A stretch of DNA of 32,363 nt from a virus. Every line of letters begins with the position of its first letter. Positions within the stretch are counted from its first letter, which is position 1. Location: IMG/VR virus record IMGVR_UViG_3300040786_000066; one strand, 5' to 3'. The notes beneath the pieces were generated by a model, which saw only the letters and a program-made list of their open reading frames with translations, was not told where the DNA came from and did not search any database. Below, in pieces: positions 3,576 to 32,363 of the stretch. Position numbers and translations under genes: made by a program.

Positions 3576-3604
3576 AAAACCCCTTCATTTAATTATGAAG
3601 GGGT
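3576..3604. terminator. Intrinsic terminator-like hairpin between convergent gene blocks
   Basis: Perfect 10-bp stem accccttcat (3579-3588) / atgaaggggt (3595-3604) with loop ttaatt. A short U run follows on the minus strand. It lies between stops at 3546 (+) and 3617 (-). Confidence 0.75.
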
Positions 3605-6600: not shown

Positions 6601-9600
6601 ATGTTACTAAACTCTGTACCGTAATTAGCGTCTGAAGCTAGCCTTGTAAGATCATGAGAGGCTGAGTCAGCTCCTCTAATAAGAGCTCTAAGACCTGCTT
6701 CTTTATCATTACTTTTCAATGCTCCAGCATGTCTTTTAGCATACCTATCTTGACCATTAAATAAAGTATCAAGTGTGCTACCAACAGATCTTATGTATTC
6801 TTTTTTGTTGAGGATTTCTACAATTGCAGCAATGTGCTCTTCCTCTGTTTTTAAATCACCGTCCAAAGTTCTCATTACATTTGCAGGCAATTTAACTTCT
6901 AATCCTACTGATTTTTCGCCTTGTTTTTTACCTGCTCTTTTAGCTAAATTATACATTAAAAGCATTCTTAGGGTTTTCACCTTTTATAGCCAGCTTTTGC
7001 AAAGCTCTTTCATATATTTTCTTAGCTTTAGCTTCTACATTATTTACTGCATCAATGTCTTTTCCTCCAGAGGCTTGAAACATAAATTGTTTAATATCCT
7101 GAGATGCAGAAGTATCCATAGTAATAGCAGGTGTTCTACCTTGAGCTATAAAATGCTGCAAGAGTTCTGCTGAAACATCGATTAACCCCTCTTTTGTAAT
7201 GTTTTTAGGTTTGTACCTTAGCCTGTCCATGTGAGCAAGTTCTTCAACACTGTAATTTCCCATACTATTCTCTACATAGAAAACAGCAGTCTGCCCTGTT
7301 TGAATTCCCAGCTCCATCAACATCAATTTGTAAATAGATGTCTGTATACTAGCCTTCATCATAGCATTCTCTTTGTAAGGGCTCATAACTCCTTTCATGT
7401 TGGTACCGCCTTTCCAATCCCAAAACATTCTTTTACCTATCTCTTTTGTTTTGTAATCAAAGATATGAGCACGGCCTTCCCCATCAATTACAACTAAATC
7501 GATAGTTCCCGCAATACCTAAAGTAGCGCTAGATAGTTTAACCTCTGGCATTATAGTAATAGGACCTCTCAACTTGTTCATAGCAGGAACTACATCATCT
7601 ATAAGAAGACGAACAAAATCCATGGCCGGTTGTGAGCTGATTGCTCTGTCCATCATAGCTTTCCTTAAGAAATCGACGTTTTCTTTAAAGAAATATATTC
7701 CGGAGTGTTCTCCTGCCCTTTAAGATAATCCCAGAAAACTCCTGGAAGTACTTATCAAATCCTACAGTATCTGGAGAACCAATACCATTTCTAATATGAT
7801 CAGCAAAATACAAAAGGCTCTTACTTTTTTTACCGTCCTTATACTCAATCGTGTTAGCATAATTAAGGGCCCTGAAAAGTCTCTGCTATACCGTGAAGGT
7901 ATGTACCTTCCTGAGTTTTAAATTCAAACTTGTTTGCCACTAGCTTGTATGCAAATTTATACTCAGCTGTCTTATCATTTTCAAGGAATTTCTTTGTAGC
8001 CTCAAAAGCCTCATTAGAAAGATCTTTACCCTCCTCTTTACCTTCTTTTTTAGCTTTGGCTATATAATCTTTATAAAACTCAGAGTACATGCTATTTAGA
8101 ATAAATGCCTCTGAATCCGCTTTACCGCTAAACTGCTCTTGAAGATAGTGAGTAACCCTGTCAAGCTTAACGTCGTTCTTTTATAGTAGAAGTATCCCCT
8201 TCTGTTACCAGTTCAAGCCCTCCGGTTGCCTTTTCTATCATAGCCTTTGTATCCATAGGTGTATGGATCATAGAAAACTTGACTGATGCAAAATTCTTAT
8301 TAGCGTCCAAGTATTTTCGGCTTTAACTAAGAAAGCATTATTCATTTTATATTCTCTACAGTATCCCACGGGTATAACTTGTAGACTGCTGAAGAGTCTT
8401 GCTCTCCATCAGCATTCATTTTATTTCCTAACTCGTCCATAAGAATGATGTTTCCATCTCCTACGCCGCGAACCATGCCTTTTCTAACAAGGCCTTGAAA
8501 AATATCTCTACCAGAAGCTCTAGGAATAAAAAACTCTTTGAAACTACTTATATGCTGCTCATCAAATACTGCAAGAGGTGTAGGGTTCATCTCTGTAGAA
8601 TACTTCATACCAATATTAAAGATGTCAGCCACAGTAGAGTTTACAGTGAACCCAGTAGATAACCAGTCCAGTGTCCTGTTCTTTGTTAGCTTCTTCAAAA
8701 GTCTTCTGTAAAATCGTCAACAGACCTGGCAATGGCCAAATTATCCTGAGGATCGATTCCCTGTAAAAGCTTCTCTAAATTTTTGGCGGCGGCGAGTCCT
8801 AGTTGATCCACAAAGACTTCCTCTACTACGTCAGTTTCTGAATGCTTTAAGCCTGTGGTATTGTACATAGCGCTGTACCAAGGAATATCACTCTGGTATG
8901 TATTCTGTACATTCTCCATAAGAGCAGCATGTGCTCCTGGATTATACTCAGAAAGCCACCTAGCATAATAATGTCCAAATTCATGAAACACTGTAGTAGA
9001 ATCAAACCTGTCGTGGTTAAGAACTATAGTCCCGTCAATTATAAACCCTTTTTTATTTTCAAAACTAGGCCCATATATCATCTTAATCTCCTGAGGACTA
9101 AGTATCTTAGCTTTAAGATTAGGCATCATATCTTGAAATATACTTACTACACGATGAGCCACTACAAGTCTTGAAGTAAGACTGGGAGCTTTGTGCATAT
9201 CAAAGTCTTTCTATCGTCTTCTGACACCATGTTGTTTAAGAACAAATTAGTGTCATCAATTGATGTAGCAGGTATATTGCTTTTTTTTTTAGTAGCCTTA
9301 AAAGCCATGTTATTCAAAACCCGTTTACAGAATTTATCTTAAGTATGTTTTCACCTGTTCTAAAAGTAGATGCAAAACAACTTTCTTTCCGGATCCTTTA
9401 AGATGTTTGTTGTAACGTTTTATAGCACTTGCAACAACACCACTATCAAAAGAATCGTCTATTGCAATATCATATCCTCTATACATAGCTGATATCAAAA
9501 GAAATTCCATTCCTTCTTTGAATAAATCGTTCTTAGTCATGGCTGAGTCCTCTTCAGATTCTCCGCTAAATTCTCTCTCTACAGCCCCCTGAGCCATGTC

Positions 9601-10045
9601 TTTACTAGTAAACTTCAGAAAAGACCGGTCGTCTGATTTAACCAGCTTTTCCGCTTTGTTTTTTTCCACTATAATCTGGGTAGTGTTACCTGGATTAGGG
9701 CTCAGTATACCTGTCTTAGTTTTGCCAAAATAATTATCGGCTATATCTTTGTATAAATTAGCTCCACTAGCTATAAGCTGGTCCATTGATTCTACATCTT
9801 CCATCGCACCAAGAGCTCTAAGGCCTTCAGTAGTAGTTGGTTTGCTGTTTGTAAATATGTAACTAGCTGCTTTGGAAAAGGTGCTTGAATTTTCAAGCTC
9901 ACTTACCGTCGGTAAAACGTTTTTTAGACAAATCTCTAGGATGTACTACGGCAGTTGAATTTGAGGCGATAGTTTTCGCCCCAAATTGCTCTACTGTTGC
10001 CGGATATTTTCCCTCATTTATGTCTAAGGCTATGGCACACTTCAT
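3617..10045 (-). CDS. Giant virion cargo protein A (~2140 aa): zincin metalloprotease domain, PD-(D/E)xK nuclease domain, helical/hydrophobic C-terminal region
   Basis: Starts MKCAIALDINEGK at 10045 after an AT-rich spacer. Minus-strand ORFs tile continuously with frame switches. Motifs are HEFGH (8971-8985) and GTYLH...E...IDL...DYKT...QTSIY (7330-7910). Ends ...VKNMIVEE*(TAG) at 3617. Confidence 0.8.
7280..7920 (-). other. RecB/AddB-like PD-(D/E)xK nuclease domain
   Basis: EGTYLHGIAE; MPEVKL; GIAGTIDLVVIDGEGRAHIFDYKT; QTSIYKLML (QxxxY). Confidence 0.88.
8790..9120 (-). other. Zincin-like metallopeptidase domain
   Basis: KGFIIDGTIVLN....STTVFHEFGHYYARWL, with a downstream VEEVFVDQLG glutamate as candidate third ligand. 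Confidence 0.85.
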
Positions 10046-10056
10046 ATTATTATTTT

Positions 10057-13000
10057 TTATTTACAAGAAGGATTAATAAACGCTGCACCATCATTTTGAA
10101 TAGTACTTAAATATATATTATAGTCTTTAGAAGACACGTAGATAAACTTATTCGGGCCTAAGTTAACATCTTTAATCGAGATTGGACGTATCTTTTGAAT
10201 GAATCGTCGTAACCACTGGCAACAGTTTTACAAACATTTCAAATCCGTCTTCACTCTCAGTAGTTCTTAGAACAATAACCTCAGCTTCTTTTCCTGCAAT
10301 ACCTAATGTCATCTTTTATGTGGTGCTTGAATAAGTTTATCTTCTAAAGCTTTCATTTTCAAATCATCACTCAACCATACTTTAGATACCCTGTTTTAGT
10401 AGCTTGCTCTGTCTTAGTATTAATCTGAACTAGTGTTCCATTATCCATTACAAGGCCTCCGTTATTCTTTAAACGACTGATAGTCACTTTAGTTATGTTA
10501 GAAGTCTTGCTTGTTTGTGATTTAATCACATAAGACCCGTTAATCATAGTTTGAACTCCATCTTTCATAGGTGTCTTTAAAGGCTTTAAGTAGTGGTTCA
10601 ATATATCGATACCCCTACAATTTCCTTTGATGCTACTTTATTAAAGTTCACATTCTTCAAAATACCAAAAAACGAAGCCTCTGCTCCAACATCCATGTTG
10701 CTAATTATCTGAGAAACCTGGTACATCATTTCCGAAGTAACCATAGGATCTGAAACACCAGTGCTTTTATTAATATCTGTAACAATAGCAGGAATCAAAG
10801 TTCTTGTGGAACCTTTGTTGGATTTAACTACCAAGTCACTATTGAGGTATGTTACATAAGAAGGTGTTTTAGCAACCGAAGAAGCTTCCTTAATATTAAG
10901 AACATCAAAAGCACCTCCAGCAGTGGCAAGTACCCTACTTTCTCTGGAAATTATATAGTCACTTTGAACATCAGCATCTGTAAATAAATTAGCTATACCA
11001 ATATTTATTGCAACGTTCTTAGATACCATAGTAGTAGGAACTGTACCTATAATACTCAAATTAGTTTCCTTTTTCTTATCCGCGTCCTTTAAATTACTAC
11101 TTTTATAGGAGCAATAATATTACCGTTCAAGTATAAATCAGGATTATCGGCCATTAGATGTACACCAGCAACTTCAAAAGACCCTGTCTCACTAGCTATT
11201 AAATAAGTCTCTACTTTAGAGTACCCAGTGTTCCAACATAAGCTAGAATACGAATAGGTTTTCCATCTTTTGAGCGGAATACCCTATTTGCACTCCTTGT
11301 AAAGCAAGCTCTTTAAGAACATTTTTGCCGATTTTAGAAAAATCAACGCTCGAAGGCATCGTAGTGTTAGGCAAAGCTTCACTATTTTCAGATGGAAATA
11401 ATCTGTAAGCAGGCTCTTCTTTTGTATGTGCATAAAACACAGCTCCTCTTAACTGCCATTGTGGTACAATATATGCTTCGCCCTCAGTATACATGGTGCC
11501 TTTATGTACTTTAGTTATAGATGCATCAGGACCATACCCTAGACCTCCTTCATTACCGTCTGCAAAATAACCAGGAAGCTCTTCGTTAGGGTCTCCTTGA
11601 TTTGGATCTTCTAAAGCAACAGGTTCTATGCCACTGGCTCTTTCAGCTGATTGTATGTTTTCAAGAGCTTCTGCTATAACATCATCTTCATACTTAACTT
11701 CCCTTTAACCATACCTAGTATAAAAGAATAGTGGGTCTTACGGCTTTATAATCAGCTGCAGTCAATTTAGAAACATGCGCTGCAAGTGCTAAGTTTATCT
11801 CTTCAAAGCCTCTATCATAGTACTTTTTTTGATCTCTCCTGCACTTACAATTAATGCATAATAGCTCAAGTTATTGTAAACTTCTTTTGTAACGCGTTTA
11901 ATTCAGGGTTATTAGTTTTAATTTTAAGCTCGCTAATACCTTCATGTATCAAAGAGGTCTCTAAAGAATCAACGTTTGCATTTTAAGCTTAGGGAAAAAT
12001 ACACTGCGTTTGTAGAATCGTAAGTCTTATTTCTTCCAAGATTTGATAACGCAGCATTCTCAGATCCTTGCATACGGTGCAACTCTTCTTTGCATACTCA
12101 ATATAAGTTTCAAAATTCTTTACAAAAGCTCCTCTGTTTGCAGGCTGGTTAAGAGACATATTTTCTTTTTATAGTCCCGTCTTCTTGCACAGTCATTACA
12201 ACACCAGTAGCATATGTACGTTTTTCAACGCCTTTTGAGTCAACGCTAACAGTGTTTCTATTAAAATAGCTCTCAACTTGAATCTTAGAGATATAACCAC
12301 CTATGTTTTTTAAGCGTTCATATTCATATCCTTTCCAGCAATAGCACTAGTTTCTTTTACTGAAAGGAATAAGGAAGGCATTTTATAGCGCTCACTCTCA
12401 TAAAGACTCTTGAATAAGTATCTTGACTGAGGGTGTAAAACACCATAAGGTTAGGGTTAAATACTTTTGAGCATCATTTTGGCTCTTATATTGTCAATTT
12501 TATCGTTTATAATTGCGTCATAAAGGACATCAGCATCTAAGTCCTTAAGTATTTTATCTAGTTTGTATTGCTCTATTTGAGCATTCTCATTTAAGTTTCT
12601 AACAGACCTAAATTTAGCAATCTCTTCACCTACTTTGATAAGGTGTATAAGACTCTTTATCGATTCAGGAGCAGTGTTTATTCCTGCTTGCTTAAGAGAA
12701 TTCTCACTGATAGATACATTTTCCAAATCACCGACTTTAATTTCAAACTTTCTAAGTACTTCACTAATGTTTTCATCATACAAGAAGTCAATAGTAGCCT
12801 TAGTGTCATAACCAAGAAGCATCATTGCCGTCATAATAGGGTTAGTAAGTTGATTAGATCTAATCTTACCTAATATAAGCTCCTTAGCATTATCTGTTGC
12901 AGCAGAAAGAAACTGTGATTGTGCGTCGTTACTCAACTGTTTTCCTATTACCTCCACAAAAGCTTTACCCACCAAGGCTTTATTTTCAGGCAAATTCAAG

Positions 13001-16000
13001 AACTTTGTAAAATCATTCAAAAGTTTTTGCTTTGAAGAGCACCGGCTTTTATGTCAATATCGTACAAGGATTTTGCAAGGCTTCTTATCATGTCTCCAGC
13101 TTCTTCAGACCCCAGCCCGTATTGAGCTACGTCTAGATTAGCCTTAAGTTCAGCAGAAAGTATGTTGACCAAAGTCTTTACAGAATCAGTAGTTTTTCCT
13201 TCTGTGAGAACCAGCTTAGCTATAGTTTTCTGAAGCTCAGTTGACTCAGCAATATTATTAGATATGGTAAAACGATCCAAATCAGCAAATCCAGATCTGC
13301 TTTTACTCTGTAGTACCCTGACTCAAAATCAACGTACGCTATATTACTCTCAAAAGAAAGGGTTTTCAAAGCTCTTTCTATCTGACCCGCTGTAGTTTGT
13401 ATCATAGTTAATCTTAGCGGCCTGTAGAGCAGAATTTATCTTAAGAACTGTAGCAAATATACCAATAGCCTCTTTACCCTGGGCAGCTAAATTCTCATAT
13501 TCAAATATTACTTTAAAGTCTTCACCACTTTTAGTTTTAACAGCTCTATTGCTTATGATACTAGCCAACACGTCTACATAGCTAAGCATTCCAGCGCTTT
13601 CAGAAACATCTAATAAAACACTACCGTCAAGATATCCAACATCTATTTGTCCCTTTATCCACTTTCTCTGTTCTGTTGCTATCTTTCCAAGATTTTGACT
13701 TCTACCGTTTATATCTAAAACATAGAAGTTTCACCTGAAGACATCAACCAACTTTTGTACATATCAGTAGCCATTGCCATATTTGCAGCAAGCTTATCGC
13801 CGTTAGCAGAATCTTTAGATTCTTCTGCAGTCATCAAAAATTCGCCTACATGTATCAAACCAGCAACGCCTGTGGCTGTAAAAGGATTACCAAAGTGCTC
13901 AAAGTCTTTTTTTTTTTTAGGCGCTCTTCTAACATTAACACCTTCATCTGAGAAAATGTCCATTGCTTTTAGCTGATTCCAACTTTTACTCTTATCAACA
14001 GTAGCAGCAGATTTTGAAAAACGAACACCTTCCTCATACTTTTCAATACGTTTTATAATAGAATCAAACATGCCCATAGAGATAGGCGTATTCAACTCTA
14101 CGGCAGTGTCAACATTATCCAAGGCTCTAAACACACCATCAGCTATTGCATTTGAAAGCAAGTTCTCGTAGTTGGCATGAATCTTTTTTGTGCTTTGTCG
14201 TATAAGAGAATCTATTTTTCAGGTTGAATAATTGTCTTTTAGCTCTCTCTAGTTTTATAACGGCAGATCTAATCAGCACAGCAGCCTCAGCAGGCCTTCC
14301 TTCTATAGGATACTGCTCGTTTAAAGAGTCCACTTTTTCTGTCTGGTATTAACAAGATCCATACTTTGTTGATTTGAATCTGCTATCAACTTTTTTATTC
14401 TTATTTCTGAATCTAGGATATCTTTATTATAAGCCAATTTCATATTAGCTACGTTAAAACCAGTATCGTCTGTGATAAATCTAGAGAAATCAAATGTCCT
14501 ACCATTAGCATCAATAGTCTTAGTAAGTACACTCAAAGTATCGATGTCCATATCCCTCCAGTATTCACAAGGTGCTCTGTAGGTGCGAATGTAGCATTTC
14601 CTTGAGCATCAAGAAGTTCAACAACATTACCCATAAAACCAGACTGCTTACTCTGTCCCGGTATACGAGTCAACGCTACTTCCAAACTAGATATAAAGTC
14701 TTTAGCCATCCCTAGCACATGCTTTTTTCTAGCCGCTTCTATGATTTCATTTATAGCTTTTATGCCTTTAGGGCTTATAGTGGTACCTTTTCAAAGTCAT
14801 TCAAATAAGTAAGCACTTGCTGATCAAAGTATTGTTTTCCATCACCAGCCTTCTGCTATAAATTCTTTTCACCCTAGTAGTATAGTGAACCGTACCACCG
14901 TTAAGAGTTATAAATCTAGCACCTACTTTTGGTTTATTGTCAAAGTACGTCTCTGCATTTTTTCATCTAATCCGTCAGTTCCTATTATATCCGCTAAAGA
15001 AACTCCTTTATCCAGACCAAATGCACTAGCCATGTATGTAGGAAGAACAACTTCGGGACGAGTAACAGAGTAAACATTGTTGCCCTCTGCGTCTTTCTCC
15101 TGAGTTTCCAGTATAAGTAGCGCTCTTTTAGCATCCATTTCTTTCTCTGTGGTGTCCTTATTTAAAGGGCTTTGTAAAAGCTCTGTACGCATCAGAACTT
15201 TCAATTTTATAGTCTTGTTGTTTTAGTGTACTCGTACCATCTTAAACTATGTCTTTCAGTTATATCTTCTTTGAGAAGACCCGCCGCTATTTTTTAAATT
15301 AATATCCTCCCTAGAAAAATTATCGTCGTAGTACCACTTAAAACACCTGAGTTTTCCTCTGGCATCTGTAACTTTAACCAGCGCATTTTCATCCAGGCTA
15401 TCATACTTAGCAGCATCCAAATCGTCACTGTAAAGCACGTCCGAGTCAATACACCTAATACCATAATGCTAGGTTATTAATCATTTCATCTGTCACAGCA
15501 CCGTATCGCATAATAGTCTCAGTTCTTTTACCTTTAACTGTGTCGTCTGTTACAAGCACATCATCAAAGGAAGAATCTGCTCATTTATCTCATCAATATT
15601 TGCACGAGAAATAATTACTCTATGTGGCTCATTTGCCTCAGTACGACCTGCATCAAGTATACCTTTTATAAAAGCAGATCTACCTACTCTTTTACCATTA
15701 GGCATTGTAAATATATTGATCGTCTTGTGCGTAGCTGATACAGTTCCAATAAATCCGGACATCTTCATCTTTACAGTGTCCTGAAAGAATGCCGATCTAA
15801 GTGTACCCATTACCTTAGCACGTACAGCAGGTGAGTCCATTGAATAAACGCTACCTTCAATTGTAACAGTTCCTGTAGCTTGGTCAGTAGCCAGCTTTTC
15901 TCCTTTTATAATCTTGTGTATAAGTAAAGAATCTGTCTTTTGAAAAGCAAGGTTTGCCATCTCGTATACACCGGCTCTAAGCACAGTATCATAAGCAGCT

Positions 16001-19000
16001 TTTCAGGACCAGTAAGGCCTGTAGTAGAAACGTTACCCTCTATAAATCGAGCTATAATTTTATCAAATCTTGTTCTATTAGTTTCTTCTGGCAAAGCTTG
16101 AAACTTAATAGCTACATTTGAAAGATCACGCCCTATACGTAAAGAGTTAATAGTCATTCTACCTCCCATAGCATTCTGAAGATTCTTTGAAGTCAGGTTA
16201 CTAAGACCACCAAAAGAAACCGCATTTACAAGTTGAGATAGTAAAGTAAGAGATGAAGCTTCGTGCAACTCTCCTGAAATATCGTAAGAGTGCGCTTTTG
16301 TAAGTACTTCATAACTGTACTCATTAGCCATATAGTCAATGTTTGGTTTGTTTTTGTTCACTTTTTTGCTGAAAACATCGTCGTATTTATTGAGTTTCTT
16401 ATGACCTGTTTTCTGATTAGAAGGAACAGTTATAAGGCCAACAAAGCTGTACAAGTTTACAGGATTTTGTCTCAGTATCTCCATTACTTTGCCCCAAACA
16501 ACGTCATCACTTACCTCATGACCAACGCTTTTGTTAAGATTTCTCATCACAGCCTGGTGCAGCTCTTCCATGTTGTTGGCTACAAATACTTCATCTTCAG
16601 CATCTCTGTTATTTACTACTCTTTCAAGGCGCATTACAGGCTGCTTAAATTTTATAGAAGTATTCATCTTCTTAAAGGTATTGTACAATTCTACACTACC
16701 TAATTTCCTCATCTGCTCTGTAGTAAAGGCATCTGTACAGATTTCTTTTGAAGAATCTGTCTCATCTTGCCATACTCAAATGTAGTAGTAAGTAACTTAA
16801 GGGCCTCTTGATTCTCTGTGTTAAAGCTCCCAAAATACCTCCTCTAGATTCCGCCATAATAAGGCTCATAAGAGGATGCATAAACTGGATAGCATCAGAG
16901 TTCTCCTGAGTATTCCCCATAGAGTTTAGTAAATTCACATAAGTAGTAGGATCGCTAATAGTAAAACTAGGTATCAAATCCGGTAACACTATCATGTTAT
17001 TATCCTTTATCTCTGCTATAGCGTCCATGTAGTTTTCCATAGTAAATGCATGCTCTCTAGCCATAACATCCACAACACCGGAAGTATTAATCTGTCCTTG
17101 TCCTACATTTGCAAGTTCTTGTGTTTGCTGTTCTACCTCTGAAGACAGTGACAAAGCGAGACTGGATCTAAGTAGTTTTGTAAGGCCATTTGTTAGCCCT
17201 GCGTCCAATCCAAGAGCTTTTAAAGCTGGCTCAGTATCTTCAGATGTACTTGCAAATACATGAGTAGTACCAACATTGAATTTTACAAAAGTAGCAGTAC
17301 CAAATTTACTTATCAAATTTCCATCATCAAATCTTGATATAACACCAAGTCCCTCAAGTTCAGCTAAAGTCCTTCCTTCTAACTCCTCAAATTCATAGCT
17401 GTTTCCAGCCATAATTCTTTTCGGAAGCGTCCATAGAGATTTCATTGTCCCCATATATATCAAGGTAGCTAAGAAGATTATCAGTTCCAAAGTCTTTTTT
17501 CAAACCTGCGATGGTAATTTTTTGGCTGTATGCATTACCTCTTGTAAGTTCCGATTGAGCTCTTTTAAATTGACCAACAAGCATGCTTTCAACTTCCTCT
17601 AAACCAGTAGTAACTCCACTATCAATTTTGAATAGTAACTTCCTATAGACTCTCCTTTGGGATATTTAGCCGAAAAGTATGACTCGTCGCCCATTGTCAA
17701 TGTCTTTAAAGCATGCCCATAAATACCATGTATCAAATAAAACCTGTCGTGAAATTCATCAACATTAGTAACTATCCCTTTATGACCCTTAAGCGCAGCC
17801 TGTATTTTAGTAGCGTTCACTTTTTTATCAGCCATGCTAATTCTATTTCTCAAAGGCGCTTTGTACCTCAGCATCAGCTTTGACAGGATTACGATACAGC
17901 TCTGCCCTTACACCTAAATGAGGCTTAAGTAAAACTACATCTGGGTTACCGTCAAAGAAACAAAATCAGCTCCTCTATCCATGTCTGAATCTGAGTAACT
18001 CACTGTGTCAGGGTGTATTTTAATTTCAGCAAGCAATGCATTAATAGGCCTTGTCATATCTCCTTGAAGCTCTGAGTAGTCTTTAAGAAGTTCTTCTCTA
18101 AGCGCAGAAAGAGCACTAGTACGCACTTCACGATCAAGCGATTTGTTAGCTGTCAAATAAAGCGAATTGTAGTTACTTAAAATAAAGCTTTTAAGGTGTG
18201 ATATAGTAATCCTTTGAAGATCTTCATTCTTCTGAGCTTGGTAAGCTATGTATCCAGCAACAAGTTGGTCCTTAATATCTTCACTTGCGCCCAACATATT
18301 CAAAGTAGTATTTACTTTATGCATCTGAATATTGGACTTATCAGAGTAATTTACCGGTTGTATATAGAATTCAGTTCCAACATTTTTAGGCGCCTTAAGA
18401 AATCCATGGATCATGGCATGCTCTATCCTTACACGCTCATCCCATGAAGAAAGTTTTATAGCCTTACCAAGATTAACCATTGGAGTTTTAATACAGTCCC
18501 GTCATATTTAGCAGGAGGTATCAACTGATTATGACTTTCAAGAAAAGGATTAAAATAAAATCTTCCAGGGTGTACTTTTGTATTAAAGTGGTTGTACCTT
18601 GAAATTTGCTGCGACATAGAAGAGTCTCTATTAGGGGTAGATGTAGCCCCAGTTTTAACCCCTCAACAGTTATCGATTTATGACTATCTACATTAAACAT
18701 AGAACCAAGAACAGTTAAAGCATCCCTGATATCATTGTAGTAGCCGACATTCTTATGTAGTCTGAATGCTCAAATGCATTTGTTATTTCATTTTCAGTGG
18801 CTTTTAAAGGAGCTACTTTTTTGTTAACAGCTGCTACATAAAGTAACTTTGAAAAGTATTCAAAACCTCGTACTGCGCTTTTCCAAAGACATAGAGGATT
18901 GAAATCTTTTGTTCATATTGCTAAAAGAGAAGATAGTCCCAAAGCCATAGCGACATTTTCCGCTTTAGCTATTGTATCCATTTTAAAAATACTTATCGGA

Positions 19001-20872
19001 ACACCTCCATTCGAGCTTATTTTAACAGTAACATCGCCTCCTGCAAGTACCTCAAGAGCACTAGCTATAGTTTCTTTAGTGTACCCTCCAGTCATCATAA
19101 CAGCTGCGATCTCAGTGTTAACAGTAGCAGTAGTAGAGGAAGAATCTATTCCTCTAGTTACAGTAGTAACACCGTCATCTACTTTCATATACCTAACATT
19201 ATCTTTATTGATAAGAGCGTTATGAAGAGCTTTTACTATAGAGTGGTTTATGGTAGTATGAACAACTCCGTTTTTCTTGCTGCTCTATAAATAGAATAAA
19301 CAGAAGTCCCGTCAGCCATTAAAGTAGCGTCCTTACTAAAACATGTAGCATAAGAGTCTCAGCAATTCTACCGGCTTCTGAATCCTGGTTAGAAAGTTCT
19401 TTAAGCGATTTAATAAACGTATTAAGATTTTACCGGCGTTAGTAAGATGAGGAGCAACAGTAAGAAAATCTATTACAGACATCCTGTCCCCAAATTCTAG
19501 CTTATTGTCTGAGTTCTTTTAACAAGCCTAAGCATTGGAAAAGATTGTGTATAAAGCTACTGTCTGAATCAAGAGCGCCAACAAAGGGTCAAAAGAATCA
19601 GCGTTTCTTTTACTAGAAGAATTATAAGAGTAGTAAGATACAGGAGTTATATCTGTAATAATACCATCCTGATTCTTGTAGTAATATTTTTCATCTACTG
19701 AAGTAAAATAAAATGAGTTGTTCTCTAAAGTAGCTTCTTCTTTTAACTCGGCGTCAGCTCTAAATGCTAAAGTGTCAATGTCTACTATGTTAATAACATT
19801 AGAATTGCGTTTCCTTTAGCATCCAAATCCTTAAGAGAATATTTATTTTTCTCGCCTTTTAAATAGTAAAGGAAGCCCTTTTATATTGAAAGGTTTAGGG
19901 TTAAGCACTTCATTGTCTTCTCCTATAAAACCACTAACCATTTGATTCTCTGACTTCATATCCTTGTGAGATACGTTAACAGCTTTAATAAGGTTGTTAA
20001 GTATAAAATCAAAATCAGTAGCCAATACCTCGTTGAAATATTTATTTTAATAGCTTCATTACCGTTTAAAACAGCAGCATCTAGAGTAGTATCCTCTTCG
20101 CTGTACTTTACAGTAGAAGCTGCAACTTCACTTTCTATAGCTTTTCTAACAGCATTCAAACCAGAATTGATATCCTCCATAAAGCCTCGCTCACTGGAAG
20201 TATTATCAATTAGCTTAGCATAAAAAATCTTTCTTGTGAATTCCATAAACTCAGATCCTACACCACTCATTCCAGGAAAGTAAGTAGACAGAAAAGGAGA
20301 CCAAAATCAGAAGCATTTTCTTTTAAGTTTTAGACTTAAGCATTCTAGCGCTCTTTCTTTTAAGCATCTCCGTGCTCGTATTATCGGTAGTAAGTGTCTC
20401 TACTATAACAAGATCCGGATCAACTAAGATACCGGTCTCGTTAACAGTTTGTACTATGGATGTGAAGTTATCTATCTTTTGAGCTACTTCAGTATTCGTA
20501 TTGTTAGTTGCACTTAAATTTGTAAGTGAAGTATAGATGTCATCGAAGTTAGAGTATCCCTCCATAGAAGAAAGAACAGCCATACGTGAAGCAATAATTT
20601 CAGGATCTTTCTCACTGTTTTTTTGCAACGAAAGCCTCTATGTCAGCAGTATTTTTGAGATTAACCATTTTTCTTGCTGTTGGTAAACTCATCAACATAG
20701 CTCCTTGAATTACATGGGCCATTGTTAAAGGATCAAAACCAGTTCCTTTTAATGTTGACTCTAACTTGCGTACTAATACTTCCGCGTTTAGAGTGCCAGA
20801 AAGAGTTTCCTCTTGTATCCCTTTAGTAAAGATTACACCTGCTATTTTTGCACTTACTGAACAATCGCTCAT
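10057..20872 (-). CDS. Giant crAss-like virion DNA-dependent RNA polymerase (two-barrel, beta- and beta'-like regions in one chain, ~3600 aa)
   Basis: Starts MSDCSVSAK and ends GAAFINPSCK*. Motifs in order: ENSDAIQFMHP (16873-16908), TRIPGQSKQS (~14641-14670), APTEHLVNTGGDMDIDTL (DxDxD 14540-14554, needing one base added in the G run), GKEAIGIFA (~13452-13480) and SAATDNAKELIL (~12870-12909). These are typical of crAss-like/phi14:2 gp66-type RNAPs. Confidence 0.88.
13545..13950 (-). other. DUF4326-like domain inserted in the RNAP
   Basis: VNVRR...HFGNPF...MYKSWL...WIKGQI..GYLDG...SYVDVLASIISN parallels the DUF4326 pattern GNPF...Y..WL...L.G..L...CHGDVL. Confidence 0.6.
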
Positions 20873-20892
20873 TTTATATATATTTTGTAAAG

Positions 20893-23800
20893 TTAAAAGT
20901 TACATTTGTTTAAAAATTCTATGAAGTCTTCATCTTCTCCGTATACCGACATCACTTTCATCAACGCATCTTTAACTGCAGCAGAAGGGTCGTTAGGGTT
21001 TTCTATGTAATCTCCTTCCTCCATAAAAGCAAACAGCCCTAATGCTGAATCTATAGCCTCAGCTCTAACTGCTTTATCCAAGCTTATACCGCCGTCATAA
21101 TCTTGCAATACTTTTATAAATGCCGCTCTTATAGGATGCTTAATATCTGTTGATTTAACTACAAATTCAGGAGCGATTCATTAGTAACTCCATTAAATTG
21201 TATAGTAGCTCTGTGAAGGACACCTTCAATTTTACTCTTCATTGTATCAAGAGTTGCTCTGTCTTCCTCTGTGTTTGTACTTCCCTTAGTTAAAGTAGTT
21301 AAAAACTAATCTCGTCAAGCATTATACCGAGTTCGGTAAGTCCCAAAGATAGCAGCTTATTTGTAACCTCAACGCTCTCTAGTGCATTAATTGCAGTTAA
21401 ATTTTCAAGAAAAGATCTCTGCCCATCAGTAAATTTAATTTTCTTAACTTCAGGTCCATTATTATTAATTGCCGCACGTATTTTAGCAGTTCCAGCAGCA
21501 GTTATAATAAACGAAGGTACTTTAATTCCTACTATACTAGACATTAAATAAGGAGCCATGGCCGCAGTAAAGTTTGAATCCACAATTCCCAAATTATCAT
21601 TCTTACCCTTCCTTACATTCGGCTTCAATGTAAACTTAGCTACATCCGAAAGCAAAGTAAGTTTCATCAGTGTAGAGCAGATTTACCTCTTAAATATTCA
21701 TTTACATTAAACACATATCCTCCAGACTTAGAACTACTAGGGTATATTATAGTAGATTTTTTAGTACCAGAAGGACCTTCATTTATACCGTTATTTACCA
21801 AGTACCCTGTCGCAAAATCATCCAAAGCAGTTTTAGAGTCTCGCTCTTTGTCCATACTGAAATAATATCTTTAATTTTTGTTTTGTAATCTTCGCCTTTA
21901 CTTTCGTAAAATCTTGCAAGATCTCTGCCTACTAATTCATAATGCGACTTAAGCTCTGCATTAAATTTAAACGAGTGGTTTTCATAACCTCTAAAGGATG
22001 TGTAAACATATCCCCACTTTTATTGTAGAAAGAAAAGCTTTCTGAGCTTTAGTAACTTTAAACTCTCTATCAATACCTTCTATATTAGTTTCTATAACAG
22101 AGCCTACAACAGCTCCTTCCAAAGGGTTTTGAATTCTTCACTTAGTGGAAACTTTGAAGATGCAGCAAGCACAAAAGAATCATGTAACTTAAAAGCAGAC
22201 CCGTGCTGCACAAAGTAGTCTTGTAAAGCCACAGAAAATCAGAGGTAAAGCTCCCATTTGGACATCTGGATTATTAGCAAGTATCACAGCTAATTCGTTC
22301 AATGGTGCTTTATACGTTAATCTAGCTATTCCTAATTCAGCAGGGATAGCGCCTTCAAAATTCTTTAGTTTATTAGTAGAGTCAAGACCCTCCATTTTTA
22401 AGTGTAGATACAATTTTATCACTGTCTAAACTACTGGTAACGCTATTGTTAGTAGACATTAACACAAAGGATTCTCCGTGTAGATTTCCTGAATCACTAC
22501 CAGAAACAGCAACTCCGTCTTTAGATAAATCTACGTACACGTTTTACTTACTACAGCACCACCTTCTCTAAGCGCTTGTACACTTAGTCCTAAAACCACC
22601 GCCTTCTGTATTTCTTGCTGGAGCTATTACATAATCGTTTTATTATACTCAGCCGTTGCTAATTTTCCGACCATCTCTTCTGCAGCCATGATACCACCTG
22701 CTCTAGTATAAAGAATCTCATCTATTTCACCGTCCAATACAATATCCATAACATCTTTACCTCCTACTTTAAAGACCTTAGTAGTATCATACTGCACTTT
22801 CAAAAGAGCTTGTTCTAAATCTTTAATTAATTGGTTTGATGCAGGGCCTCCACTTAAAGTATCCAATTGAGATACTACGTGGTTAGTATTTCCTTCTTGA
22901 GCCATGATTAAAACATCGATATCCTTTTTTACTTTTCCGTTTACAACTCTAACAAGACGCGATACTCTAAGAACTATTTTTTTAGGTTTAGGTATCTCTG
23001 AAGTACCACTATAGTTGAAAATGTCCAACGTTTCTTTTGGGAGTATACTTTTGAATGTTAATGAAATAGGGCTAGGATAACCAGCCACATCAAGGTTTTC
23101 TTTTGTTACCCTTGCAGTATAAGTTCCAGAACCTCTGTTAGATGCATAAATGTAATCATTCAAAGTTTCTTTACGCGTGTTAGTAGTATACGGTCTATAT
23201 ACAAATCCTTTTCCGTAACTATCAGATCCAAACGTAGATGATTTACTTTTATATAAAAGATTCCAAATATCTTGTATTTCTATAATGTTAGACATCATAT
23301 CAGTGTCGTTATCGTCCATCGCCCTTCCTGAGTTGAGAGATTTCCACAAAGCGTTTTGTACTTTATTAATTTCATTGTAAAGTACTGTTGCTCTATAATG
23401 CTTGAATCTATACCAAGAGCATTTTTCAGCCTTTCCATATCTTTCATAAGATCGTCATGCGTTCTTTGAGGTCTATTTTCTGGGCTGTGTGGATCCTTGT
23501 TTCTTTTGCCTTTCTGCTTCTGCTGCTTTTGCTGCAGCTGCTTGCGCTCTCTTTTCTGCAGCAGATCTTTTCGCATCCTCAGCTTTCTTTTCAGCTGCTC
23601 TTTAGCCGCTGCTTCTGCAGATGCTGCTGCCTGTGCTTTAGCTTTAGCTTGCTGTTTTTTATAGCCGCATCGCTCTGTCTTTTACAATCAAAGCTGCTTT
23701 ATACAACGCATCAGTTATGCTCTCAGGTGAATAACCAAGATTGTATAACTCCATGGTACTGTCAGGAAGCGTAATTTCAGTTGAGGTGTTACCAGGCTCA

Positions 23801-29800: not shown

Positions 29801-31404
29801 GCAAACCTAGCCTTTTCTCTGAAGCCGCTTTAGGAGCTTCTTTAGCAACTGATGCAAACAACTTTTAAGCAGCCCTTCCTGCTCTGTCTTCATAGCAGTT
29901 TTATGTTTTCTCTCAACACTTTTACTTCATAATCTCCTAAGATATAAGAAGCGTATTTAGTAGCTTTCCACATAGCAACAGCCATAGCTCCAGTAATAAC
30001 AGAAGCTTCAGATGTAGTATAGCCATTTTCAATAGCTTCGTTATAGGAATCTTTACAGACATTGCTGTTAATACACCCCTTACTGACATTTCTGCCGCTT
30101 TGTTTTGTGCTTTTGTAAAGCCGCTCCAGAAAGTCCGCCATTAATAATTCCTGCAGCCCCTGCTCGTCCAAGTCCACCAGCTAATGCAATCTGTAGCGCT
30201 ACATCTGCAGTGGTAGTTAGCGCCGCTTCTAAAGATCCAAAACCCATCTTGCATAGCTTCTCTAGACATTGAAGTATTGTTAGATTTCAACTTAATACCC
30301 TTTGTGGTAAACCAGTTGTACAAATCACTTTTCTTACATCTAAGTCTTCATCAGAAAACATACTAGCCACTCCGTAACCTCCAGCTATTGAAGCTCTTGT
30401 AAGCTGCACCGCTGTATCCATTACGTTAACAGCCATATTAAAAGGAGATCTAACAAGTATCTTGGCATAATCCAAAACACCGTCAGCCTCTAATTTATTG
30501 TTCTTAAAAACTCTATCTAAGTTTACATCAAACATTCCCAACATGCTTGTAGGACCTGTATCTAAATCCCAACGCGAAACAACCTGGTCATCCCTTACAT
30601 CAGCTAACTTTCCAGTAGCCTCGTCAAGAACTCTTCCGTCGTGAATCGCATTGAAATAAAGGCCATTAACTCCTTCATTAGGGTCTATTCCGTAAAAGCA
30701 TCAGAGTAAGCTAAACCTCCAAAGTAGGGTCTTTTCTAATTCCTTTAATAATTCAGGTGAGTACTCTTTTATAACATACGACTCTTTGCCGTCTGCATCT
30801 ATCTCTTTAATTTTAATTGCAGAAAAGTTTTCTCTGTAATCTTTTGTAGGTGCAGTCCAGTCATCCCTGTTTTAAGAGTTCCTGCCATATTGCTAAAGCG
30901 CGTAGTAACATCCATTCTAAGAGCGCTCATGTCTTCTCTAATAAGCTCGTGCCCTGTTTGAGATCTTTGATATTGTCCTAGCTGAAAGTTGGCAAACTCT
31001 TTTTAGAGTTGTCGTATGCTTGGTCAAAGCGCATTTTAGCTTCAGAGCCGTAACTATTTGAAAACTGTTTTGTACTTTAGAGTCTTTCCAGTAATCTTCT
31101 TTTGATTTAAATTCGCCAAATCCGTCAGTACCATAGACATCAAAAGATTTTTAGTGCTGATATCCGAGCAGTTACTCTTGTGAGAAACCAGTCCTCCTTA
31201 GCATTAACGCCTGCTTTTCCAGCGGCAGAATTTTCATCTACCATAGGTCTAACAGGTGGTTTTCAGGATCCTCTGGAGCTATAGGTGCTTGAGATGCTGT
31301 GGTATCTATTGAAGGGCCTGATGGAGGTGTAGATATTACTGGAGCCACACCGTTGTATTTTCTTGTACTGCTGTGTCTAAAGAAGAGTTTGCTATTTCTG
31401 ACAT
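20893..31404 (-). CDS. Giant virion cargo protein C (~3500 aa) with a central SF1 (RecD/Dda-like) helicase domain
   Basis: Likely start MSEIANSSLDTAVQE at 31404, immediately after a TAA at 31408-31410. Fragment ORFs tile continuously. Helicase motifs lie at 25480-26580. Ends EFLNKCNF* at 20893. The start position is inferred. Confidence 0.75.
23500..23670 (-). repeat. Ala/Lys/Glu-rich low-complexity helical linker
   Basis: A (gct)-rich stretch that reads KAQAAASAEAAAKEQLKKKAEDAKRSAAEKRAQAAAAKAAEAERQKKQG in the probable true frame. Confidence 0.7.
25480..26580 (-). other. Superfamily 1 helicase/ATPase domain
   Basis: Walker A VTGIAGSGKSS, Walker B IIAIDEATYV, motif III LLLLGDPRQSG, motif V-like VGGSEANYMI, motif VI-like LTTLATRAFDY. 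Confidence 0.85.
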
Positions 31405-31407
31405 AAC

Positions 31408-32363
31408 TTATTTTACTTATTGAATTAAAACTTTGTATATTTCCAAAGTCGCCTGGCGCTGTAAGAGCAGATCGTGTAGACAAGAAGTTAGCCATCTTAT
31501 CGTCAAGTTCTCCCATAACAGCTAAGCCCTGTAATTTTTCTCCTTGTTCACTAGAGGATTTTCTAAGCGACTTCACCTTAGTAAAATCATCATCTTGTGC
31601 ACGTTATCTGCACCTAAGTTAGAGTTGTCTATTCCATTTACATCCTGTAAAACTCCCTTTCTTTGTAGTTGCCTTAAGAATCATCCCACTACCAAAGCCT
31701 CCTGCAGTTTTAGTTTTACTGCTCCGTCTAAATCAAATCTATCGTTATCAAAATAATCCAAGTACCTAGCATAGGTTGAAGACTAATAGCTGTATTCCCT
31801 ATGACGCGTTTAAAAGTTGCTGCAGAGTTCTGTATCACTTTTGCGCGTCCATGGCCATTGCAAAATTATTTGCGGCAGGTATACTGTTTGGATTAGCTAT
31901 AGATTCTTTTCTATATCTTTCCACTTCCATACCTTTCTGCATCCACATTGCATACTCTCTAGTATCTGACTGGGCCTTTTCTGATATGTTTCCAGGAAGA
32001 AGATTCTCCGCAGGTGTATTTATTACAATACCGCCTAACTTGCCCTTAGAAGACTTAATAAACGCTCGTCTAGCGTCTAGCTTCATAGGAGTCAGTTTAA
32101 GCATGTCTTGCGTTCTAATTTTACCAGAAGCATCCATAGGCATAAATACAATAGGCATATTCTCATTAGGCGCTATCACAGCATCCTCAGATATAAACTG
32201 TTTTACAGCTTCTGCACTATTGCCAAGCAGCGTTCTAAAGTTGTTCCACTAGGGATATAAATCTCAGACTTGTCTGTGTAAGAATCAATAGCCTGGTTTT
32301 GCATAAAGTTATTTGCTGCGTTTTTCAAGTCAGGAGATGCTTTAGGGTCATTACTAATTTCAA
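31408..32363 (-). CDS. Hypothetical virion-associated protein D, 5'-truncated (C-terminal ~320 aa)
   Basis: Fragments 31835..32179 and 31576 onward join with frame switches. The probable end is ...GDFGNIQSFNSISK* if one A in AGTAAAATAA is an error. It is co-oriented directly upstream of the giant genes. Confidence 0.6.

Follow-up and report, generated by a model that had tools for sequence, protein, structure and literature searches.

Three consecutive giant genes, C, B and A, fill most of the IMG/VR virus record IMGVR_UViG_3300040786_000066, a stretch of 32,363 nucleotides that was analysed whole (hereafter the window), and their products carry cysteine (Cys) at those protein termini that face another member of the block and at neither outer end. 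This terminal-Cys rule is a property of a whole phage order, the Crassvirales, and not of the window alone. From the sequences we lean towards reading C, B and A as the crAss-type virion cargo block of the window phage, with the Cys pairs at the two junctions forming disulfides between consecutive proteins.

A terminal-cysteine rule across the Crassvirales

A word-based protein search gave one relative, P0001, on contig L001, where a gene ending ..DIINNC is followed by one starting MNKC and each protein has that Cys alone. Using the L001 protein starting MNKC as query, phmmer retrieved 27 homologues of B from 1.84 billion representatives. All full-length B homologues (21/21; 2,442–3,773 amino acids (aa), 24–33% identical to the query) contain two Cys and no more: the first at residue 3–5 and the second within the last three residues; a single protein has the first at residue 8, its called start probably being four codons too early. 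Metagenomic C proteins have a lone Cys at −2 to −4 from the C-terminus, once at −11, and an N-terminus without Cys. Metagenomic A proteins have a lone Cys at residue 3–5 and a C-terminus without Cys, with one A protein having an extra internal Cys. Gene D, which lies upstream of C, never ends with Cys in contigs carrying B homologues, and four more distant IMG/VR loci (28–34% identity in the catalytic region) have the same Cys pattern.

The same rule is followed by cultured phages and by curated genomes. The only Cys of phi14:2 gp67 (1,797 aa) is its last residue, the polymerase gp66 (2,180 aa) contains just Cys 3 and Cys 2179, and gp65 (1,421 aa) just Cys 3. For crAss001, gp47 has its only Cys at −3 and gp49 at residue 5, with gp50 having Cys 5, an internal Cys 1334 and a Cys at −9. 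The rule also fits DAC15, IAS virus, LMMB, crAss002, cr271_1, cr10_1, cr56_1, cr4_1, cr113_1 and Flavobacterium phage FpV4, including three (cr56_1, cr4_1 and cr113_1) that read TAG as glutamine.

We tallied 37 systems (80 proteins), with the cultured phi14:2, crAss001, DAC15, crAss002 and FpV4 among them, scoring as a junction Cys any that lay in the first 8 or last 11 residues. Cys was present at 109/109 termini facing another block protein and at 0/34 outer termini, a pattern far beyond chance (Fisher P ~1e-33 for junction versus outer termini, shared ancestry uncorrected). Away from the termini, metagenomic systems have 3 Cys in 133,416 residues and GenBank phages 79 in 71,595 (0.11%); neighbouring genes in related loci have 0.71% Cys, and the replication enzymes of crAss001 and phi14:2 ~1.5–2%. 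Terminal Cys are encoded by both codons (TGT 61, TGC 9). In alignments, M1 and C4 are among the five invariant columns of the first 300 aa of B; over the last 300 aa of C (12–21% identity) only two columns are invariant, one of them being the Cys. The residues around the terminal Cys are otherwise variable, with no conserved histidine or Cys nearby.

Fusions, splits and rearrangements

The facing Cys of a junction are gained and lost together. Fusions of C and B (FpV4 gp32, four Suoliviridae and L029, which is probably such a fusion with its 5′ end cut) have no Cys at the N-terminus and none near the old junction, and keep the pair at the junction with A, one Cys at their own C-terminus and one at the N-terminus of A. 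The complementary B+A fusions of Intestiviridae (LMMB, crAss002, cr271_1) start MSC and end without Cys, and the C proteins that face them still have their C-terminal Cys. We sought remnant Cys in the fused proteins, and none maps near the former junctions. Gain is seen in one clade, where a short B (~2,450 aa) is followed by A1 (~1,460 aa), which aligns to the C-terminal third of long B: the split carries a new Cys pair (..LC at the end of one protein, MAC.. at the start of the next), and long B has no internal Cys.

The rule still holds in crAss001, DAC15 and IAS virus, which encode C on the other strand, and in L029, where an unrelated gene lies between the two partners; a nucleotide-level signal at the junctions is thereby excluded. 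That inserted gene (L029:14039-16060) encodes 673 aa with two Cys and sits between the protein with a C-terminal Cys and the MKC protein.

Because facing Cys come and go as pairs, head-to-tail pairing is favoured over a ring of B or self-dimers, and the view that the cargo proteins would be chained in order is well supported by these sequence comparisons. The initial annotation of the window had proposed testing whether terminal Cys across crAss-like genomes are enriched only at internal junctions and disappear on fusion, and both the tally and the fusions came out as predicted. Its larger proposal, a chain linked head to tail by disulfides, threaded through the tail and released by reduction, is partly supported: co-variation backs the in-order pairing of C-terminus with N-terminus, and the disulfide itself, one-to-one packaging, unfolded threading through the tail and release by reduction are hypotheses.

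A proposed disulfide tether

The cargo block behaves like one polyprotein of 5,000–10,000 residues that has been cut into two to four genes, depending on lineage. Each cut is marked by a Cys in the last 1–11 residues of the upstream protein and another at residue 3–6 of the downstream protein, other Cys having been purged. A disulfide between the two Cys of each cut, formed once the particle is assembled or released, would then give a linear C-B-A chain with side stubs of only 0–10 residues. Tethered in this way, the proteins would stay associated in a fixed order and could travel through a narrow channel as one thread, end to end; in the host cytoplasm, thiol reductants could then open the links. 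For two lone conserved thiols at facing termini, a disulfide is the simplest chemistry.

Several properties fit that chemistry. Lysine or arginine flanks the N-side Cys in 29/54 cases (12.5 expected), and basic neighbours lower the pKa of a thiol. The C-side Cys is the very last residue in 20/55 cases, and Cys4 of B falls on a short coil preceding the first helix in a model of its N-terminal 300 residues (mean predicted local distance difference test (pLDDT) score 74). Virions of crAss001 themselves contain disulfides, described in the tail and portal vertex only and none of them between cargo proteins, in a paper that does not mention cysteine (PMC10172136). AlphaFold modelling of the final 300 aa of C gave an unusable result (mean pLDDT 42), and a complex prediction pairing that segment with the N-terminal 300 aa of B scored 0.00, which speaks neither for nor against binding.

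More tentatively, and at a confidence that stays somewhat short of even, all Crassvirales and their environmental relatives might chain their cargo by terminal disulfides into one thread of 0.6–1 MDa, which would travel N-terminus first in single file and be cut by host thiol reductases into active enzymes.

Several points weigh against a disulfide-linked chain. The evidence for the inter-protein cross-link is sequence co-variation. Internal Cys occur at 0.11% in gut and cultured Crassvirales, so the purge is not absolute, and the C-side Cys lies at times 9–11 residues from the end. The counts, uncorrected for ancestry, include only about three independent kinds of fission or fusion event, and 12/37 systems are B proteins alone, with their neighbours outside view. 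The timing and route of bond formation are also problematic, as the cytoplasm in which the proteins are synthesised is reducing and the gut habitat of crAss phages is anoxic. Finally, a smaller cargo protein of Intestiviridae has a lone Cys near its C-terminus and no N-terminal partner in view, which implies that terminal Cys can have other partners.

Alternative explanations

That last point bears most directly on the idea that the terminal Cys bind a different partner (portal, capsid interior, tail, other cargo or a host factor) or pair between copies of the same protein, as C-C or A-A dimers, a B ring or B-B chains. Each protein may be present in several copies per particle (PMC10172136), which would suit self-pairing, but this explanation predicts neither the Cys-free outer ends nor fusions that remove just the facing Cys and keep the other pair; in a B ring the remaining Cys would be orphaned by fusion, yet it is kept. 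We regard it as unlikely. Slightly less likely still is a join between consecutive proteins by other means, such as a bridging metal ion, a multi-copy cluster or another thiol-based bond. It would explain the same pairing and co-variation and would sidestep disulfide formation in a reducing cytoplasm or an oxygen-free gut, but each terminus offers one Cys amid variable flanks, with no conserved histidine or Cys nearby; a single thiol per side makes a poor metal site, and the crAss001 particle has documented disulfides (PMC10172136).

Cys that served as processing or assembly signals, for example by marking ends to be trimmed by the zincin or recognised at packaging, would leave no lasting link. 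A does have a zincin protease domain (HEFGH), and the study of phi14:2 put forward cleavage of fused forms into individual proteins (bioRxiv 10.1101/2020.03.07.982082). A lone Cys among variable neighbours would nonetheless be a weak recognition signal, and both the purge of other Cys and the joint change of facing termini would go unexplained, which makes a signalling role very improbable. Chance, a gene-calling artefact or a nucleotide signal at the junctions, for instance translational coupling, might be suspected given the many sequencing errors of the window and start codons that, in metagenomes, are only predictions. The comparative data effectively refute it: the same rule is found in error-free relatives and in curated cultured phages, it holds for non-adjacent genes and opposite strands, both Cys codons are used, and junction and outer termini separate completely.

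Relation to known systems

For the disulfide-linked chain that we prefer, the nearest counterparts are the cargo proteins of cultured crAss-like phages. The phi14:2 series gp67-gp66-gp65 resembles C-B-A in consisting of a giant protein, a DxDxD polymerase and a zincin-bearing protein under the same Cys rule, and gp66 is the virion RNA polymerase of that phage (Drobysheva et al., bioRxiv 10.1101/2020.03.07.982082). The window proteins differ in being 1.5–2 times longer and in sharing only the catalytic motif at the BLASTP level. The crAss001 proteins gp47, gp50 and gp49 likewise combine the terminal Cys pattern with a place in the virion, and differ in the opposite-strand position of the gp47 gene and in the one internal Cys of gp50. 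These three are virion cargo that must partly unfold to exit, and N-to-C ejection has been proposed for another crAss001 cargo protein (Bayfield et al. 2023, PMC10172136). Packaging of the block proteins has been shown by mass spectrometry for crAss001 and phi14:2 only (PMC10172136; annotation), and by analogy with these two the window's C, B and A would also be packed in the virion.

Cys suppression is known from N4-like phages. Ejection proteins of Schitoviridae (N4 gp50/gp51/gp52, DEV gp71/gp72/gp73) contain 0.00075% Cys, against 0.865% in the whole proteome, which has been explained as avoidance of periplasmic disulfide enzymes (PMC11445570). Both systems eject a giant virion RNA polymerase and its partners through the cell envelope and strongly suppress Cys. 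The N4-like proteins, however, have no Cys at all, termini included, and their polymerase is a single chain of a different fold, whereas the crAss block keeps just the Cys that face a junction, at every one of the 109 such termini. The loss of Cys from ejected proteins of N4-like phages is thus already known; the terminal pairs are apparently undescribed. We found no description of them in the full-text literature, where Drobysheva et al. is covered as a preprint only, and neither the phi14:2 preprint (bioRxiv 10.1101/2020.03.07.982082) nor the N4 paper mentions cysteine or disulfides.

The proposed release has a parallel outside phages. AB toxins (diphtheria toxin A-B, clostridial neurotoxin light-heavy chain) hold their partner by one interchain disulfide that cytosolic thioredoxin opens after membrane passage, and by analogy crAss cargo may follow the same logic. 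The toxin chains come from one nicked polypeptide, with internal Cys flanking a loop; the crAss proteins, in contrast, come from separate genes, and their link would run between extreme termini, within a virus particle.

The cargo block of the window

From ~31.4 kb to ~3.6 kb, the minus strand of the window is a single coding run broken into short open frames (Table 1). The breaks are indel errors in the contig: a codon-usage Viterbi path contains 185 frameshifts (121 one-base losses and 64 gains), ~1 per 175 nucleotides. We rejected an alternative genetic code as their cause, since reading TAG as glutamine, TGA as tryptophan or TAA as glutamine leaves the frames unhealed.

Gene boundaries could be read directly from the sequence. 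C runs from an ATG at 31404 to ..FLNKCNF and a TAA stop (20895-20893). B starts with an ATG at 20872, its frame being closed upstream by TAA (20902-20900) with no earlier start codon, and ends ..NPSCK before a TAA at 10059-10057. A extends from an ATG at 10045 to ..KNMIVEE and a TAG stop at 3619-3617, and gene D ends ..LEIYKVLIQ at 31417, without Cys. The junction sequences given in the initial annotation (..NKCNF/MSDC and ..PSCK/MKC) are exactly as it described them, coordinates included, and the Cys-free outer ends (MSEIANSS.. and ..NMIVEE) and end of D that it reported are likewise present. Its domain assignments are borne out by a Walker A motif (GIAGSGKS, ~26555) in C, the catalytic motif TGGDMDIDTLSVLT (14562-14521) in B, and a zincin motif (HEFGH, ~8985) and a PD-(D/E)XK nuclease domain (~6950-7700; Pfam expectation value (E) 6.6e-6, PHROG exonuclease E 5e-9) in A.

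Table 1 Features of the cargo block in the window and of smaller cargo proteins in related phages.
Feature	Coordinates	Strand	Remarks
Gene C, giant cargo protein (putative), ~3,510 codons	20893..31404	minus	starts MSEIANSS, ends ..NKCNF; ~52 frameshift errors
Gene B, putative crAss-type virion RNA polymerase, ~3,610 codons	10057..20872	minus	starts MSDC, ends ..PSCK; ~54 frameshift errors
Gene A, cargo protein (putative), ~2,145 codons	3617..10045	minus	starts MKC, ends ..NMIVEE
Only Cys codon of C (TGT), third residue from the C-terminus	20902..20904	minus	sequence and reconstructed frame
N-terminal Cys codon of B, residue 4	20861..20863	minus	column C4 invariant in homologue alignment A3
C-terminal Cys codon of B, second residue from the end	10063..10065	minus	sequence, reconstructed frame and homologues
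Only Cys codon of A, residue 3	10037..10039	minus	sequence and reconstructed frame
In-frame internal Cys codon of B	15343..15345	minus	homologues without Cys at this column; ambiguous
Terminator-like hairpin, CCCCTTCA..TGAAGGGG then TTTT	3576..3603	minus	just 3′ of the A stop codon; closes the three-gene block; read from sequence
Lone-Cys smaller cargo-type protein, LMMB, 861 aa	L012:3576-6161		ends ..KQSCR
Lone-Cys smaller cargo-type protein, crAss002 gp30	L015:4393-6066		ends ..FRCGGKKKIA
Lone-Cys smaller cargo-type protein, FpV4 gp30	L014:4054-5850		starts MKKKC..
Paired Cys 390/398, crAss001 gp45	L010:1988-4516		
Paired Cys 369/378, phi14:2 g069	L011:4986-6248		
Paired Cys 337/347, cr271_1 gp44	L027:136-2325		

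Reconstruction of the frames leaves one Cys each in C (3,511 codons) and A (2,145 codons), both at a junction, and in B (3,613 codons) the two terminal Cys plus three internal ones, at 15453, 15345 and 11238. The frame is corrupted at 15453, where the Cys adjoins in-frame stops, and at 11238 an inferred frameshift lies only 13 nucleotides away from the Cys. In frame within a well-aligned stretch, the Cys at 15345 occupies a position where the homologues all have variable residues other than Cys (tyrosine in some), and may be a substitution error or a real exception. Over the ~9,270 codons of C, B and A, the reconstructed frames thus give four secure junction Cys and three doubtful others, in keeping with the claim of the initial annotation that the true frames are almost free of Cys over ~9,000 aa; the Cys at ~15345, which it had called ambiguous, stays so.

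The window has three co-oriented giant genes with the zincin motif in the last one; its gene order C-B-A matches that of L005-L008 and L019-L022, and its C aligns to the C proteins of L005, L006 and L008. The DxDxD motif is found in a TGxDFDxD context in 20/22 B homologues longer than 2,000 aa. BLASTP aligns the window's TGGDMDIDTLSVLT to TGSDFDIDKMYVM of phi14:2 gp66 (E 5e-5, for the motif segment alone), and crAss001 gp50 matches phi14:2 gp66 in sequence search. Other searches were negative: no match was obtained by phmmer with P0010 against PDB sequences or when P0016 and pieces of the window were compared with the phage collection by megablast and tblastn, related-locus searches found none for a window fragment in viral contigs and none for A1 in metagenome contigs, and the word-based protein search with P0002 returned only the self-match.

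Two apparent exceptions to the rule were rejected. On L001, B is spread over three genes without Cys at the breaks; homologue alignments cross both breaks, which consist of an in-frame TAA (L001:4513-4515) and a frameshift at ~5094 in the RNA polymerase gene. The split A of L007 is intact in the near-identical L006, which has identical B and C. As a separate matter of gene calling, the annotated start of crAss002 gp33, the RNA polymerase fusion protein of that phage (L015:15088-15186), seems to be 32 codons too early: residues 33–35 are MSC, after an AT-rich stretch, and an MSC start matches LMMB and cr271_1.

Other observations on the block and its surroundings

Some smaller cargo-type proteins encoded upstream have a single Cys near one end and no matching partner terminus in view (LMMB, crAss002 and FpV4; Table 1); they may form homodimers or join the chain in another way. 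The smaller upstream virion protein known as cargo protein 1 in crAss001 has, in three distant phages, two Cys 8–10 residues apart and is otherwise Cys-free (Table 1), and these closely spaced Cys may form a conserved pair within or between chains.

Helicase-type matches (AAA_30/AAA_19) fall in long A proteins (~3,000 aa) of three relatives (L005:21227-30541, L006:20653-29397 and L022:20692-29736). The window differs from them in having its clear Walker A motif in C, and helicase modules seem to move within the cargo block. Just after A, on the opposite strand, there is a small Hc1 gene (histone H1-like, PF07432) in two loci (L005:30639-30818 and L020:27903-28109). Directly downstream of the cargo block in a further locus (L021:27568-28298) are Pfam matches to Tad2-like and Sequestin, families of anti-defence sponges.

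Implications for crAss-like phages

The rule has a practical use, as it helps to pick true start codons (crAss002 gp33) and to spot false splits in giant genes (L001, L007). Its biological interest lies in the infection strategy of crAss-like phages, which are more abundant in the human gut than any other viruses. The means by which ~1 MDa of their protein enters the host, with the polymerase that initiates infection among it, has yet to be explained (PMC10172136, PMC13434306). The rule, strict and valid across the order, suggests that the proteins are tethered covalently, head to tail, a specific hypothesis that could be tested at little cost. If true, the tether would explain equal protein numbers, exit in order and the free tolerance of gene fission and fusion. 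If the order-wide form of the proposal also holds, protein delivery in these phages would be redox-gated, with a disulfide replacing the peptide bond wherever the polyprotein was cut.

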